The notes below the pieces were generated by a model. That model saw nothing but the letters and a program-made list of their open reading frames with translations. It did no database searches and was not told where the DNA came from. Source: Candidatus Omnitrophota bacterium (GTDB taxonomy: Bacteria; Omnitrophota; Gorgyraeia; JAUYCX01). Taken from it: 24,000 nucleotides of DNA. Of this stretch, positions 4,588 to 24,000 are shown piece by piece. Numbering within the stretch: the first letter of the stretch is position 1; each line of letters opens with the position of its first letter. Location: NCBI GenBank assembly GCA_030692045.1, contig JAUYCX010000015.1, forward strand, positions 60,065-84,064, read 5' to 3'. The position numbers and the translations under genes were made by a program.

Positions 4588-6140
4588 TGTTTAAAATGCC
4601 TCACACCAGTGGTAATCATCGGCACTCTGGATTTATTGCAGACTTTAATGATTTCCTCGTCGGAAATTGAGCCGCCGGGTTGGATTATCGCGGAAATTCC
4701 TGCCTTAATGGCTAATTTAACTGCATCCTCTTTGGGGAAAAAGGCATCTGATGCCAAAATACTGCCTTTAGCATTTTTGCCGGCTTTTCTTATGGCAATA
4801 ATTACACTTTCTACACGGCTGGTTTGTCCTGGACCAATACCCACAGTTTTTGTACCCTTTGCCAAAACAATAGCATTGGATTTGGTATGCTTAACTACCT
4901 TCCAGGCAAAAAGAAGAGAAGCAATTTGTGCTTTTGTAGGTTTTTTATTTGTGACTGTCTTTAAATCTGACTCTGAGATTTGCTTTGTATCCTTATCCTG
5001 CAAGAGCAATCCTCCGAAAACCTTTTTTAAGTCAAATTCTTCTTTATGGCTCGTTTCAAAAGGCATCTCCAATAGCCGGATATTTTTCTTTTGCTTTAAA
5101 ATCTCTAAAGCCTCCTCTTTAAAGCTCGGCGCAATAATGCATTCTAAAAATCCGCTTTTAGAAATCTCCTTAGCCAAATTTTTATCTACAGCCCTATTTA
5201 TTCCTACAATTCCGCCAAAGGCAGAGAGTTTATCGCTGTCCCAAGCATTTTTGTATGCCTTAATAATATCCTTATCTTCAGCCACACCGCAAGGATTATT
5301 ATGCTTGATAAATACAACTGCTGGATTAGAAAACTCTCTGATTAATTCAAATGCCGCATTTAAATCTAAAATGTTATTAAAGGATAACTCTTTACCGTGC
5401 AGTTGTTTTGCCTTAGCTAAACCAAAACCATTATCCTTCTGAGTATAAAATGCCGCCATCTGATGTGGATTTTCGCCGTAACGTAAATCCTGCAGTTTGG
5501 TAAATCTTAAAATCAAATCCTTAGGCAAGGCAGAAATTTCTTTTGCCTTTAATTTATTGCTTAGAAAATCATAAATTACACTGTCGTAGCGCGAGGTTGA
5601 ATTAAACACCTCAATTGCCAAATTTATTAAAATAGAATCTGAAATAATCCCATTATTATTCTCAAGTTCGGTTAAGATATCCTTGTATCTGGCGGGATTA
5701 CAAATAACTGCCACCCCCTTAAAATTCTTAGCACTTGAGCGCAGCATTGATGGCCCCCCGATATCAATATTTTCAATTGCCTCTTCTAATTTGACATCCT
5801 TTTTTTGAATCACCTTTTCAAAGGGGTATAAATTTATTACCGCCATATCAATAAGCCCGATATTATGCTCTTTTAATTGAGCCAAATGCTCCGGGTTTTC
5901 GCGCAAAGCCAGAAGCCCAGCGTGAATCTTAGGGTGCAAAGTCTTTACTCTTCCGTCGAGCATTTCTGGAAAACCCGTATATTCAGAAACCTCTTTAACT
6001 GGAATTCCTGCCTCTTTAATCATTTTGGCAGTGCCGCCAGTTGAAATAATTTCAATGCCTAATTTGTTTAAGCCTCTGGCAAAATCCACAATGCCGCTTT
6101 TATCAGAAACGCTAATCAATGCGCGCTTAACCTTAATCAT
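4584..6140 (-). CDS. purH: Bifunctional AICAR transformylase / IMP cyclohydrolase
   Basis: 518-aa ORF. N-terminal MGS-like domain (RALISVSDKSG...STGGTAK), and C-terminal AICARFT domain (FGGIVGINR, VLAKG..TVGIGPGQTSRV, ASDAFFP, IIQPGGSI.D). Confidence 0.95.
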   Translation of the reverse strand: MIKVKRALISVSDKSGIVDFARGLNKLGIEIISTGGTAKMIKEAGIPVKEVSEYTGFPEMLDGRVKTLHPKIHAGLLALRENPEHLAQLKEHNIGLIDMAVINLYPFEKVIQKKDVKLEEAIENIDIGGPSMLRSSAKNFKGVAVICNPARYKDILTELENNNGIISDSILINLAIEVFNSTSRYDSVIYDFLSNKLKAKEISALPKDLILRFTKLQDLRYGENPHQMAAFYTQKDNGFGLAKAKQLHGKELSFNNILDLNAAFELIREFSNPAVVFIKHNNPCGVAEDKDIIKAYKNAWDSDKLSAFGGIVGINRAVDKNLAKEISKSGFLECIIAPSFKEEALEILKQKKNIRLLEMPFETSHKEEFDLKKVFGGLLLQDKDTKQISESDLKTVTNKKPTKAQIASLLFAWKVVKHTKSNAIVLAKGTKTVGIGPGQTSRVESVIIAIRKAGKNAKGSILASDAFFPKEDAVKLAIKAGISAIIQPGGSISDEEIIKVCNKSRVPMITTGVRHFKH

Positions 6141-21094: not shown

Positions 21095-21275
21095 GTAGAT
21101 TTAATATAATACTTGTTGAGGTTAGTCAATTTTTGGCTAACTAAAAAGGTAAACCAATCTTCCTTAAAGATAAAGGAAGACCCCGGAGTATTGTCGGGGG
21201 CCGTAAGGATGGGGCACAAAGCTAAAGGGTCCGCCAAATAAATTTGGCGAGACAGCCAGCTGCCAACAGGATAAT
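21095..21275 (+). promoter_or_regulatory. Structured 5' leader, candidate riboswitch or attenuator sensor domain (class unassigned)
   Basis: Hairpins at 21157-21179 (TCTTCCTT/AAGGAAGA) and 21180-21200 (CCCCGG../..CGGGGG), and an irregular 52-nt hairpin at 21213-21264 with apical stem CGCCAAA-TAAA-TTTGGCG. AUGGG at 21209-21213 can pair with CCCAU in the 5' arm of the terminator. Confidence 0.4.
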
Positions 21276-21316
21276 AAAAAACCCATTCTTTAGGCAAATG
21301 AATGGGTTTTTGTTTT
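21276..21316 (+). terminator. Intrinsic terminator immediately upstream of the pilin SD and start codon (expression platform)
   Basis: AAAAACCCATTC-loop-GAATGGGTTTTTGTTTT, followed directly by the AAAGGAG SD and the ATG at 21329. No upstream plus-strand gene exists for it to terminate. Confidence 0.7.
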
Positions 21317-21328
21317 AAAGGAGTGGCG

Positions 21329-22534
21329 ATGAAAAAAATTGCTATAAGAAACGAGGGTTTCACTTTGGTTGAAGTATTAGTTTCCACAGTGATTGCCGTA
21401 TTTATGGCAATTATTCTGTTGGGTTTGTTTCTGGTGGGCAGAAATTCCTGGTCAACAGGCGCAGTTTATATTGACCTGCAACAACAAGCGCGCCGGGCAA
21501 TGGATGCAATGGTTTGGGAATTAGCGCAAACTGGTATTGACTTAACTCAAGCAGTTGAGGTTAAGATACTTCCTTGCTCAAACAGCGATAACGAACCTCC
21601 AGAAGCCATCTGTTCAGGAGAAATGGTTTCCTTCAGTATACCAATAAGCACACCAGAGGACATTGGTTATACCATCTATAAACCAGATGGCACAATTAAG
21701 TGGGGTGATAAGGAAACTAGCCCTCTCAACCCTCTGGAACAAGCGGGAACAGAGGGCCGCACAATTAATTTTTATGTAGCAAAGCCTCCCTCAACTGATC
21801 CCTCAAAAACACTGGTTAGGCGAAGTTGGATTCAAACAGGCGTTGGCTGTTTCTTAGCCGGAACCACTATTTTGATGGCTGATTCAACACTTAGGCCTAT
21901 TGAACAGCTTAAAACAGGCGATGAGATTATGGCTTTTGATGAAGACTCAAAAGCCCTTGTTAAAGATAGGGTTAGCAAATTTTTTCAACACACGGCAGAT
22001 GAATATTTAATTATTAACCATAAAATTAAGCTTACAGCCAATCACCCTGTTTATTCTAATGGTAAGTGGTTAGAAATAGGCGTATTAAAAAAAGGAGATG
22101 CTTTGTTCAACTCTGAAGGCAAGCCAGAAATAATCAAAGATATAAAGAAGATTCGGGAAAAAGTTAAGGTCTACAATATCGAGGTTAATCCCTATCATAA
22201 TTATTTTGCCGGTGGGATATTGGCGCATAATAAACCTTTGCCTCCAGAAGAAATCCCCCGACCGCCTTGCGAGTGGTGCAAATTATGGGATGATTTTCTG
22301 TTTGTTAAAGAGGCCTTTGCAGTTGGAGGTGGAGGGGGAGCTACTTATGATATTACAAGGAAATATTTAGCATCTGATATTACTGAGGTAAATTTTGCAG
22401 GCTTTACAAGCTCAGGCGGTTCTACTGACACAAACCCAGATTTAATTGAAATTACTGTTACGGCAGAAAAAACAGCCCTTGCGGGAGGCAATATAACTTT
22501 ATCTCTAAAATCCCGAGTGACCTTGAAGAATTAA
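21329..22534 (+). CDS. Type IV pilin-like minor (pseudo)pilin carrying an internal Hint/intein-like domain
   Basis: Prepilin class-III signal MKKIAIRNEG/FTLVEVLVSTVIAVFMAIILLGL. PilW/GspJ-like segments (QQQARRAMDAMVWELAQTG at the N-end, ITLSLKSRVTLKN at the C-end). I chose the ATG at 21329 (SD AAAGGAG) rather than the track start at 21302, which lies inside the terminator hairpin. Confidence 0.85.
   Translation: MKKIAIRNEGFTLVEVLVSTVIAVFMAIILLGLFLVGRNSWSTGAVYIDLQQQARRAMDAMVWELAQTGIDLTQAVEVKILPCSNSDNEPPEAICSGEMVSFSIPISTPEDIGYTIYKPDGTIKWGDKETSPLNPLEQAGTEGRTINFYVAKPPSTDPSKTLVRRSWIQTGVGCFLAGTTILMADSTLRPIEQLKTGDEIMAFDEDSKALVKDRVSKFFQHTADEYLIINHKIKLTANHPVYSNGKWLEIGVLKKGDALFNSEGKPEIIKDIKKIREKVKVYNIEVNPYHNYFAGGILAHNKPLPPEEIPRPPCEWCKLWDDFLFVKEAFAVGGGGGATYDITRKYLASDITEVNFAGFTSSGGSTDTNPDLIEITVTAEKTALAGGNITLSLKSRVTLKN
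21848..22231 (+). other. Mini Hint domain (128 aa; bacterial intein-like) embedded in the pilin
   Basis: CFLAGTTILMADS (Cys1, block A), KLTANHPV (TxxH, block B), VYNIEVNPYHNYFAGGILAHN (blocks F/G, terminal HN). The next residue is Lys. There is no endonuclease insert. Confidence 0.8.
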
Positions 22535-22594: not shown

Positions 22595-24000
22595 ATGAAT
22601 AAGATACTTAAAAATAACCACGGATATGTATTAATTCTCTCATTCTTTATAATTATTTTGCTAATGGGATTATCTGGAGCGTTTTTTCTCAAAGGAGTGA
22701 ATGAAAAACTGAATGCTGAAAAATCCTTAAATGCGCTAAAAGCAGACTATGCCATCCAACAAGGCATAAATCATGCTATTTACGAATTACTAACACAAAA
22801 CAAAATAGATAATAACCCTCTACATGATAATATACCCTGGGCAACCCATACGCTTTTTTGTACTCCAGCTCCAGGAATATGTGCGTATCCATATCTACCA
22901 GATAATCCTTCTGGTAATAACCCTGCGTGGCCCTTTCCTATAACTTCATATTATGAACTTACAGAACAAATCCAAGCTAACACAACACCGGGCTTAGGTG
23001 CAATTGATACTACTGCTGGAAGCCCAACCTATGGTTGTTATGTTAAGCAAGATGCTGATGGCAACACAATTTATGCCGCAAAAATATATATTGATGCTGC
23101 CTCTCCTACTGAAAGGGTTATCTTAGTAAAAGGTTGTAGTGGTAATGTGTGCCGTTTAATAGTTACTAAATTCTCTGGAGAATCATTGTATAATTATTTT
23201 ATCTTCACTCCTTATGAATTTGGTTTTGGCTGGAAGATTTATGATGCCTCTGGAGGAAAAATTCACACTAATGGCGACTTTATTTTTTATGAAAGGGCTA
23301 CGATTAAGAACTTTTCTTCATTATCAGCTTTTGGATTTATGAGGTATGAAGTAAATTCTTATATTCCACCAGGACCTTGTGGACAATATTGTCCGGGCTC
23401 TCCACCTGGCACAACTTGGGAAGACATTTTCTGGAGCTGGCGAAAACCTTACTTTCCTGGCAAAAATCTTGCAGGAATAGATGTTCTTACTGGCCAGTGG
23501 AATGATAATGAAAACTGGTATGTAAATCAAAGTGACGGCCATTTATTCGGAAATAGTGGGAGTCTTTTTATGGAATTTCCTGTTGGCTCAGGAACATATG
23601 AAGAATGGGACCCAGATAAGTTTGGCTGTCCTCCAGAAGGCTGTCCTCCGCTTCTTCCTGATGCTCTTGTAGGCGACCCACTTTATGAACAGCTATATTT
23701 TACTGGTGCATTTCCTGTATTTTTTGATTTTGATAACTGGGGCCCACCGCACCCTCGTTTACCTATACCCAATGTCCTTTATGGCTATAATGGTGAAGCC
23801 TCTCCTCGCCAATGGAATATCTACAACATTGTTGAGGATGAGCCATACAGCTATCCTGAAGTCTTACAACCTAAGTGGTTTACAAACTCTGATTGGTTTC
23901 CTCAACGCTGGCAGGATTTTATTCAAAATAACCCGGTACAAGACCTAAGGGGTATTGTCAAAGAATCGCGTAGTGGCGGCAATTACATTAATCCCCAGCG
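22595..24000 (+). CDS. PilX-N-like pilus/pseudopilus protein, large Cys/Pro/aromatic-rich ectodomain, partial (continues beyond right edge)
   Basis: Absent from the track because it has no stop in the window. I translated it from ATG 22595 and found no stop to position 24000: MNKILKNNHGYVLILSFFIIILLMGLSGAFFLKGVNEKLNAEKSLNALKADYAIQQGINHAIYELL... This is a PilX N-terminal-type anchor. It is followed by CTPAPGICAYPY, KGCSGNVCRL, PGPCGQYCPGSPPG and FGCPPEGCPP. Confidence 0.7.
   Translation, partial: MNKILKNNHGYVLILSFFIIILLMGLSGAFFLKGVNEKLNAEKSLNALKADYAIQQGINHAIYELLTQNKIDNNPLHDNIPWATHTLFCTPAPGICAYPYLPDNPSGNNPAWPFPITSYYELTEQIQANTTPGLGAIDTTAGSPTYGCYVKQDADGNTIYAAKIYIDAASPTERVILVKGCSGNVCRLIVTKFSGESLYNYFIFTPYEFGFGWKIYDASGGKIHTNGDFIFYERATIKNFSSLSAFGFMRYEVNSYIPPGPCGQYCPGSPPGTTWEDIFWSWRKPYFPGKNLAGIDVLTGQWNDNENWYVNQSDGHLFGNSGSLFMEFPVGSGTYEEWDPDKFGCPPEGCPPLLPDALVGDPLYEQLYFTGAFPVFFDFDNWGPPHPRLPIPNVLYGYNGEASPRQWNIYNIVEDEPYSYPEVLQPKWFTNSDWFPQRWQDFIQNNPVQDLRGIVKESRSGGNYINPQ

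Follow-up and report, generated by a model that had tools for sequence, protein, structure and literature searches.

What is a Hint domain doing in the middle of a pilin-like protein, and is it there to splice, to cleave or to attach? This question is raised by a gene at positions 21329–22534 (+ strand) of a stretch of 24,000 nucleotides from a Candidatus Omnitrophota bacterium (GenBank assembly GCA_030692045.1, contig JAUYCX010000015.1), which is called the window in the following. The reading frame is translated without interruption into 401 amino acids (P0001), and the protein is present in the nr database, where its only name is 'polymorphic toxin-type HINT domain-containing protein' of Candidatus Omnitrophota. 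We find that it encodes a prepilin-type protein with an internal Hint domain, and that its family comprises at least 20 proteins from Omnitrophota.

The answer that we favor, with a probability of roughly 0.6, is that P0001 is a minor subunit of the type IV pilin kind, in which an exposed β-hairpin has acquired a Hint module similar to the type-A bacterial intein-like (BIL) domains. This module would excise itself, and the two halves of the pilin would stay paired or be joined again. An initial annotation of the window, made from the letters alone, had pointed to the same gene. The reading frame, the NEG|FTLVE signal, the Hint boundaries at 21848–22231, the motifs CFLAGTT, TANH and GGILAHN and the lysine at position +1 that it gave are all correct on re-translation, while several of the names and functions it attached to them have to be revised, as will be seen below.

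The Hint domain and its place in the pilin

The Hint domain spans exactly residues 174–301 of P0001 (21848–22231, + strand). Its 128 amino acids start with CFLAGTT, in which Cys174 is the Cys1 residue, contain the TANH motif (T236-x-x-H239) and end with GGILAHN, that is, with the pair H300-N301. The next residue, at position +1, is Lys302 (22232–22234, + strand). The Pfam model PT-HINT matches with an E-value of 2.1e-19 and 70.6 bits (cut-off 27.7), the Pfam model Intein_splicing with 40.2 bits (cut-off 35.8), and the NCBIfam model intein_Cterm is also above its cut-off, so that the searches for Hint and Intein_splicing that the initial annotation had proposed both turn out positive. The match is far beyond chance. 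No endonuclease insert, nor any remnant of one, is present in the 128 residues.

The closest relatives of known structure are BIL domains. Using phmmer against the sequences of the PDB, the best matches are the BIL domain of C. thermocellum (2lwy, 9.9e-13) and BIL2 of Tetrahymena (6tmm/6y75, ca 1.5e-11). In the AlphaFold2 model of P0001 the Hint domain, residues 174–301, has a predicted local distance difference test (pLDDT) score above 93, and a Foldseek search with this model places BIL2 of Tetrahymena BUBL1 (6y75) at the top, with an E-value of 1.9e-13 and 30% identity, followed by 2lwy with a template modelling (TM) score of 0.85, a root-mean-square deviation of 1.7 Å and 32% identity. Both BIL domains rank above the DnaB, gp41-1 and RecA mini-inteins and above Hedgehog.

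The likeness to the type-A domain of C. thermocellum (BIL4) extends beyond the fold. Both are mini-Hint domains of ca 130 residues with Cys1, TxxH and a His-Asn end, both lack Cys, Ser or Thr at position +1, and the hosts of both are secreted or surface proteins, in which they occupy variable regions. The sequence-level traits of the type-A class, namely Cys1, TxxH, terminal His-Asn, a non-nucleophilic +1 residue, a variable location and no homing endonuclease, are thus all found in P0001. What sets P0001 apart is its type-IV-pilin-like host with the Hint in a β-hairpin, the invariance of lysine at +1 and the occurrence of arrays of up to three Hints in related pilins. As to BIL2, the best structural match, it is a eukaryotic and cytoplasmic domain with ubiquitin-like flanks, whereas in P0001 the flanking parts together make up one pilin of the cell envelope, and the role of Lys302 is putative. 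The Hint fold is shared with Hedgehog/Hog as well (1at0, E 1.7e-6 in Foldseek), and sister copies of the P0001 Hint sit at protein C-termini with trivial tails just as Hog does; P0001, however, has no sterol- or adduct-recognition region, carries the terminal His-Asn and has its Hint in an internal position. By class, the domain would therefore go with the autoprocessing modules of the BIL/Hog type, and with neither the homing inteins nor the pretoxin modules. The description in the initial annotation, of an A-type BIL mini-Hint with no nucleophile at +1 and no endonuclease, is in accord with Pfam, phmmer, Foldseek and the alignment.

Conservation points in the same direction. Thirteen full-length relatives, which are 36–47% identical to P0001 overall, all share with it Cys1, the block B Thr and His, the His before the last residue and the Lys at +1. 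The terminal Asn is found in at least 90% of the Hint members (the alignment and the copies of the wider clade), at Hint identities that range from 43 to 91%. The Hint is the most conserved segment of the protein, with a mean pairwise identity of 0.56 compared to 0.44 for the α1 helix and 0.32–0.34 for the globular parts of the pilin. Such constraint speaks for a domain that is active and under selection, and fits it better than a decaying passenger. The base composition was considered as a test of recent transfer, and the 35% GC of the Hint segment against 42–44% in its flanks is not a convincing anomaly.

We now turn to the host protein. Its first ten residues, MKKIAIRNEG (21329–21358, + strand), form a class-III (prepilin) leader, for which cleavage by a prepilin peptidase is predicted after Gly10. 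The sequence MKKIAIRNEG|FTLVEVLV has Gly at −1, Phe at +1 and Glu at +5, as in the G|F-x-x-x-E signature of prepilins, Phe and Glu thus being residues 1 and 5 of the mature chain. The Pfam model N_methyl, also among the searches proposed initially, gives 20.3 bits for P0001, slightly below the cut-off of 21.2, and it matches 14 of 18 Hint-less family members (best E 2.2e-8).

The start codon at 21329 is preferred over an in-frame ATG at 21302, because a Shine-Dalgarno sequence, AGGAG, is found at 21319–21323 (+ strand), 5 nucleotides ahead of ATG 21329, because the codon at 21302 lies inside a terminator-like hairpin, and because the NCBI entry for P0001 has 401 residues. A version of 410 amino acids that includes 21302–21328 is called in one assembly; having no Shine-Dalgarno sequence and starting within the hairpin, it is probably a mis-call.

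The two parts of the pilin that flank the Hint are modelled with different degrees of definition. The N-terminal part, residues 11–173 (21359–21847, + strand), has the α1 helix at residues 13–67 and β-strands up to residue 168, and contains the near-invariant Cys83 and Cys95 and an IKWG motif. After the Hint comes a variable linker, residues 303–346 (22235–22366, + strand), with a proline-rich stretch, a CEWC pair, an amphipathic F..F....AFA motif and a glycine run, where the pLDDT is 36–66. The chain ends with β-strands in residues 347–401 (22367–22531, + strand; pLDDT above 93), the last residues being SRVTLKN. In the full-length model, the mean pLDDT of which is 85.6, the poorly defined linker covers residues 302–341 and is followed by four confident strands at residues 343–398.

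Whether these flanks make up one fold can be answered with a natural protein. Using a query from which the Hint had been deleted (residues 1–173 joined to 302–401), we found P0055, a Hint-less protein of 202 residues with the JGI name 'PilW'. It is 50% identical to P0001 over residues 6–166 and 45% identical over residues 347–401, and at the insertion site it has 11 unrelated residues in place of the 180 residues of P0001 (linkers included). The AlphaFold2 model of P0055, with a pLDDT of 92.4 and a predicted TM score of 0.81, shows one compact fold of the pilin kind, in which a helix at residues 8–60 precedes a β-sheet, and the insertion point falls in the turn between the strands 131–139 and 142–150. 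Since P0055 aligns to both flanks and is modelled as one compact fold, the flanks of P0001 form one fold. The initial annotation had suggested a structure prediction of this kind, and P0055 settles the matter in favor of a single pilin. In the models, the Hint thus interrupts a β-hairpin, between a strand that ends at ca residue 168 and one that starts at ca residue 343, and the last 55 residues are integral strands of the pilin rather than cargo. Release of the C-terminal 100 residues, which had been put forward as a possible purpose of the Hint, is for that reason unlikely, as these strands are kept in Hint-less homologues.

It should be noted that the kinship with known pilins is narrow. 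The models of both P0001 and P0055 show an α1 helix packed on a β-sheet head, which is the arrangement of type IV pilin-like proteins. However, neither the PilW nor the T2SSJ models of Pfam and NCBIfam match P0001, P0055 or 18 relatives, a Foldseek search of the PDB with the P0055 model found nothing (best E 0.25), and profile searches against the pilins of the PDB give a match that is confined to the α1 helix of PilA and the geopilins. Only the N-terminal class-III signal and the α1 helix are recognizable as pilin by HMM (hidden Markov model) or fold searches, and the label 'PilW/GspJ-like' that had been given to the two flanking segments finds no backing in them.

Other occupants of the loop and the HNK clade

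An exhaustive phmmer search with the N-terminal extein (residues 1–173) gives 310 representatives at E ≤ 1e-3, of which 19 reach E ≤ 1e-10. The N-half, the Hint and the C-half were scored separately, and the length of the insert at the hairpin was measured across 40 family members, where it ranges from 0 to 449 residues. The hairpin is empty in P0055, P0066, P0088 and others. It holds the amphipathic F..F....AFA motif alone in P0064, P0067 and P0074, so that this motif also occurs in members with no Hint, and cysteine-rich CGDGxC repeats in P0063, P0065, P0073 and P0078. One Hint is present in 19 sequences, two in P0007/8 and three in P0002, a protein of 662 residues. Alleles with and without the Hint, a survey of which had been suggested initially, are thus both at hand. 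A scan of one genome per species added only one further full-length relative, which is again from Omnitrophota. The location in a hypervariable surface loop is in keeping with the habit of BIL domains, while inteins occupy conserved functional sites.

The cysteine-rich repeats, CGDGxC...C..DC, are worth a separate remark. They are found in the pilin loop (residues 167–346 in the numbering of the window protein) with or without a Hint, in P0063, P0065, P0069, P0073 and P0078, and the same repeats precede the Hint in the non-pilin proteins P0031, P0036 and P0045. This distribution suggests that the cysteine repeat, the Hint and the AFA motif may be a set of modules that is shuffled among proteins.

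To see where else such a Hint occurs, an HMM was built from the Hints of the family and searched among the retrieved proteins. It recovered ca 60 copies, nearly all of which end in HN|K, and Cys1 is present in essentially all of them. Outside the P0001 family most copies stand at the far C-terminal end of the host protein and are followed by only 1–19 residues, and three of the proteins terminate exactly at ...HNK. The hosts include a prepilin-type family in which one or two Hints form the C-terminus (P0003-6 and P0027), a major-pilin-like family (P0032, P0025) that ends with a Hint of this clade, and secreted proteins of the FG-GAP, LamG, β-helix and glycosidase-like kinds that are terminated by it as well. 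Genuine inteins among the same matches, namely the helicase inserts P0051 and P0053, have Cys at +1. More distant PT-HINT matches from other phyla have a mixed +1 residue (K, C, T, S, A and others), and the actinobacterial copies have Cys at +1 and tails of more than 100 residues.

The +1 lysine is accordingly a signature of this HNK clade, as judged from the sequences, and not a property of the P0001 pilin. The initial annotation was right about its presence. Because the sister copies end their hosts with trivial tails, the clade would act as a C-terminal autoprocessing module of the BIL/Hog type, and these copies point to N-terminal cleavage or transfer as its probable core activity.

One of the pilins with C-terminal Hints also gives a link to the assembly apparatus. 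P0005, a minor-pilin-like protein with two tandem Hints at its C-terminus, is encoded in another Omnitrophota genome in an operon similar to those of type IV pili and type II secretion systems (L007:1-10601), together with an MshEN-T2SSE ATPase, T2SSF, one or more N_methyl pilins, a TPR protein and PilM. Hint-bearing pilins are therefore associated with assembly machinery in Omnitrophota.

Two further observations on the clade can be added. A single reading frame on the + strand of a metagenome-assembled Thermoplasmata archaeon (JAGGZU010000116.1, L016) carries nine tandem Hints, mostly with Thr at +1 and with Cys1 of the next copy close behind, which is an extreme case of the arrays of three (P0002) and two (P0003-8) copies. 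Secondly, a cysteine pair of the form C-x2-5-C, often CPPxC, recurs 10–20 residues after the HN of the Hint in unrelated hosts of the clade (P0002, P0007, P0009, P0024, P0031, P0032, P0062). In the window it corresponds to 22265–22276 (residues 313–316, PCEW; the CEWC is at residues 314–317). This pair could form a disulfide knot, bind a metal or serve as an auxiliary thiol.

Possible chemistry and competing explanations

The proposed sequence of events is as follows. The bitopic prepilin would be inserted via Sec/SRP, such that the Hint folds on the periplasmic side. An N–S acyl shift at Gly173–Cys174 would then yield a thioester, and cyclization of Asn301 would let the Hint leave the pilin loop with no need for a side-chain nucleophile at +1. 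Three outcomes can be envisaged from here. In the first, water resolves the thioester, and the result would be a two-chain pilin, the halves of which are held together by their shared β-sheet. In the second, the amine of Lys302 attacks the thioester and the halves would be re-joined; the nucleophile could be either the α-amine freed by the cyclization of the asparagine, as in type-A BILs, or the ε-amine, as in BIL2 of BUBL. In the third, the N-terminal part, anchored by its helix, would be transferred to an external nucleophile. Cleavage, amine-mediated splicing and transfer by the P0001 Hint are all possible. The expression of the pilin and of the partner protein or proteins of ca 800 residues that are encoded behind it would be set by c-di-GMP (cyclic di-GMP) via a riboswitch in the leader. 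The Hint itself would be an optional but selectively maintained module, and neither a homing intein nor a device for toxin release.

In type-A BILs, which have no nucleophile at +1, cleavage products dominate, and splicing can take place via the α-amine that is freed by the cyclization of the asparagine (PMC4031507). In BIL2, the thioester is resolved by the ε-amine of a lysine to give an isopeptide, and the N-extein is conjugated to other proteins with no need for ATP (PMC8616854). The statement in the initial annotation that the outcome would not be clean splicing is thus too strong, as type-A BILs can splice and BIL2 makes lysine isopeptides.

A number of points weigh against this proposal. 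The ratio of cleavage to ligation is not predictable from the sequence. The invariance of the +1 lysine is explained neither by the type-A model, in which any +1 residue suffices, nor by simple hydrolysis. Moreover, Cys1 would have to be in the reduced state in the same compartment in which Cys83 and Cys95, and the cysteine-rich inserts of the relatives, are presumed to form disulfides. Asn cyclization is not universally kept, since P0022 lacks the His-Asn pair and reads ..ATD|K at this place. About half of the sampled pilin family has no Hint, which means that the module may add little to the function of the pilin. Finally, the window contains no genes for a prepilin peptidase or for assembly machinery, and in one homologous locus (L001) no riboswitch is found at the gathering threshold, the only threshold that was used.

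The third outcome can also be taken as the function of the module as such. Here, an external amine or hydroxyl group, belonging to the partner protein, the envelope or the surface of a host or prey cell, would attack the Hint thioester and the N-terminal part would become linked to it with no need for ATP, in a reaction akin to the cholesterolysis of Hedgehog or to conjugation by BIL2 of BUBL. As described above, the closest solved relative attaches its N-extein to lysines on other proteins (PMC8616854), and the strict conservation of the catalytic residues suits such a role. Many pilins and adhesin-like secreted proteins end with a Hint of the HNK clade and have hardly any C-extein; for these, splicing would be pointless and release or transfer would be sensible. 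In addition, Omnitrophota are inferred to live attached to hosts, and type IV pili have been implicated in this attachment (PMC10066038). However, every acceptor named here is hypothetical, and with the internal Hint of P0001 the pilin would be severed from its own C-terminal strands. The partner gene and the riboswitch are the same in Hint-less alleles, and the conserved terminal Asn would be unnecessary for a pure N-terminal transfer. Taken together, we consider transfer as the purpose of this Hint to be rather unlikely.

The same tentative judgment applies to the broader notion that HNK Hints give type IV pilus-like filaments an ATP-independent covalent chemistry, by which pilins and surface proteins would be attached to the +1 lysine or to a lysine, lipid or glycan that belongs to a partner, to the envelope or to a host cell. 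We regard it as speculative and doubtful. If it is true, covalent bonds would lock the tip complexes or tie the cell to its prey. Gram-negative bacteria would then have a counterpart to covalent pili that needs no sortase, and prokaryotes an analogue of BUBL or Hedgehog transfer. The pili of Gram-positive bacteria are known for their covalent chemistry, in the form of sortase-made isopeptide links and of thioester-domain adhesins at the tip. The shared concept is that of a pilus subunit with a reactive thioester or isopeptide; the fold, the machinery and the chemistry are unrelated, and the comparison is an analogy only.

Another option considered was a selfish mini-intein that would splice cleanly, leave an ordinary pilin and serve no function in the host. 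The Hint fold and its Cys1, TxxH and His-Asn, the score of the Intein_splicing model and the existence of Hint-less alleles are what an intein would display as well. The +1 residue is nevertheless invariantly Lys, compared to Cys in the true inteins P0051 and P0053, and the site is a hypervariable loop, not a conserved functional site. There is neither an endonuclease nor a remnant, copies occur in tandem (P0002, P0003-8), the clade is found at C-termini with tails of 1–19 residues, and the Hint is more conserved than its host. The empty site of P0055 is not a precise deletion either, given its 11 residues against 180 (linkers included). In terms of the class-1 inteins, both the +1 Cys, Ser or Thr and a conserved insertion site with a precise empty allele are lacking. 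We therefore hold this explanation to be improbable. A homing intein was rejected because +1 is Lys, the site varies, copies occur in tandem and sister copies stand at C-termini.

It is also conceivable that the Hint is catalytically silent and decorates the pilin for structural or binding purposes, no processing taking place. It is a stable, small β-domain, the loop tolerates unrelated inserts such as the cysteine-rich repeats, the oxidizing periplasm may block Cys1, and P0022 does without the His-Asn pair. Against this, the invariance of Cys1, of the block B Thr and His and of the penultimate His, together with a terminal Asn conserved to at least 90%, at Hint identities of 43–91%, is the pattern of catalysis, and the tandem arrays and the C-terminal placement with trivial tails are hard to explain in structural terms. 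A silent domain is, in our view, quite unlikely.

The last alternative, in which a pretoxin-type Hint frees a C-terminal toxin of ca 100 residues delivered by the pilus, agrees with the nr name, with PT-HINT as the best Pfam match and with the HINT peptidases that stand directly upstream of toxin domains in polymorphic toxins (PMC3482391), but is highly improbable, as the C-terminal 55 residues are 45% identical to the strands of a Hint-less pilin and are modelled within the pilin sheet, what is left of the tail is a linker of low complexity, the Pfam and NCBIfam scans show no match to a toxin family, the gene downstream encodes a conserved partner of 800 residues that also follows Hint-less alleles and is not a small immunity gene, and the survey of polymorphic toxins names no pilin or pilus (PMC3482391). 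The toxin reading was rejected on account of the homology of the tail to the C-termini of Hint-less pilins. With the pretoxin-HINT domains (PF07591; MafB, Rhs and CdiA types) P0001 thus shares the best Pfam model and probably the extracytoplasmic, autoproteolytic Hint of secreted proteins (PMC3482391), but no toxin domain or immunity gene follows in P0001, where the C-terminal segment belongs to the pilin fold.

Leader, partner gene and implications

The preferred reading, of a self-excising Hint in a minor pilin, includes control by c-di-GMP, and this part is based on the leader. At 21138–21267 (+ strand) there is a c-di-GMP-I (GEMM-I) riboswitch aptamer, which matches Rfam RF01051 with 43.5 bits (gathering threshold 35) over the full model, 1–87, and has an insertion of 47 nucleotides in the loop of the first hairpin. 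It is followed at 21277–21316 (+ strand), just 5′ of the Shine-Dalgarno sequence, by a terminator-like hairpin with a 12-bp stem, AAAAACCCAUUC/GAAUGGGUUUUU, a loop of 11 nucleotides and then a U-tract. Its folding energy is −21.7 kcal/mol (z = −3.67 compared to shuffled sequences), and it probably serves the riboswitch as its expression platform.

Aptamers of this kind are also found at most of the homologous cassettes. Those of the c-di-GMP-I class, with scores of 50–56 bits, are located at L002:94-181, which is a Hint-less allele, at L003:3430-3520 and 5835-5918, and at L006:4450-4532, while the one at L005:5818-5902 is the variant c-di-GMP-I-GGC (RF03167, 59.6 bits, gathering threshold 59). 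The riboswitch is thus kept upstream of the cassette of pilin and partner whether or not the pilin has a Hint. One of the two copies in L003 precedes a partner-like reading frame of 732 residues with no called pilin gene.

Riboswitches for c-di-GMP are known upstream of pilus and motility genes, examples being GEMM-I and the c-di-GMP-II riboswitch of C. difficile pilA1. As in these systems, the aptamer and a terminator-like platform stand here directly upstream of the pilin gene. The differences are the cassette of two or three genes, made up of a minor-pilin-like protein and one or more large orphan partners, which is located away from assembly genes, and the insertion of 47 nucleotides. The leader that the initial annotation had counted as part of an undescribed system is therefore indeed present, but belongs to a known class of riboswitch.

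The gene that follows the pilin starts at ATG 22595 and runs off the window, so that its 5′ part of 468 codons (22595–24000, + strand) is visible; the locus L009, which was reached by way of the partner protein, supplies the rest. Its N-terminus has a hydrophobic segment, and the full-length product has 814 residues (791 as called). In the own genome of P0001 (L009) the pilin is followed by two tandem paralogous partners of 791/814 and 781 residues (L009:6473-11249), and a partner is found downstream of both Hint-containing and Hint-less pilins in L001, L002, L003, L005, L006 and L009. The partner proteins have ca 720–830 residues, a mean column identity of 40% among nine members and an N-terminus of the form G-[FY]-x-L-I, which lacks Glu5. 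Neither a single sequence nor the nine-member alignment gives a Pfam, NCBIfam or PDB match. The gene had been described as PilX-like, but there is no PilX_N match, and the resemblance comes down to the hydrophobic N-terminus as judged by eye.

In all loci that were recovered, the cassette, that is, the pilin with or without the Hint and then the partner, is oriented divergently to a gene of the PAC2 family; it is often tandemly duplicated. A few genes downstream of it, a large PilZ-domain protein and an Omp85/peptidase-M1 fusion are encoded in two syntenic genomes (L009:16383-16917 and L001:20215-21182). The PilZ protein may be a second link to c-di-GMP near the cassette. The remainder of the window is of the housekeeping kind, with genes for Mur ligase, PurH, YchF, EF-G, DJ-1, rubrerythrin, β-CASP, Ddl, Nramp, MgtE and Nth.

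With regard to novelty, a search of open-access full text gave nothing relevant on a pilin or prepilin with a Hint, intein, intein-like or PT-HINT domain, and the architecture is absent from both the survey of polymorphic toxins (PMC3482391) and the Omnitrophota genome paper (PMC10066038). The word 'undescribed' in the initial annotation holds in the sense that no open-access description was found; it does not hold for the protein, which is in nr and has a sizeable family. Hint, BIL and pretoxin domains are known, as are c-di-GMP riboswitches ahead of pilus genes. What appears to be new, from the sequences compared here, is the recurrent placement of Hints in type IV pilin-like proteins, the HNK end and the tandem arrays.

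The architecture is not a one-off, as it is found in an Omnitrophota family with one to three Hints in one and the same loop, and, in addition, a second pilin family has C-terminal Hints and occurs in an operon of the type IV pilus/type II secretion kind. The analysis corrects a misleading database name and offers a natural set of alleles with and without the Hint. Compact Hints that work in the periplasm with no Cys, Ser or Thr at +1 would, if the domain is active, possibly be useful for protein ligation. If the Hint is active, the pilus subunits of these host-associated nanobacteria would mature, break or ligate themselves outside the cytoplasm, which would add a new layer to the biogenesis of pili or to adhesion.

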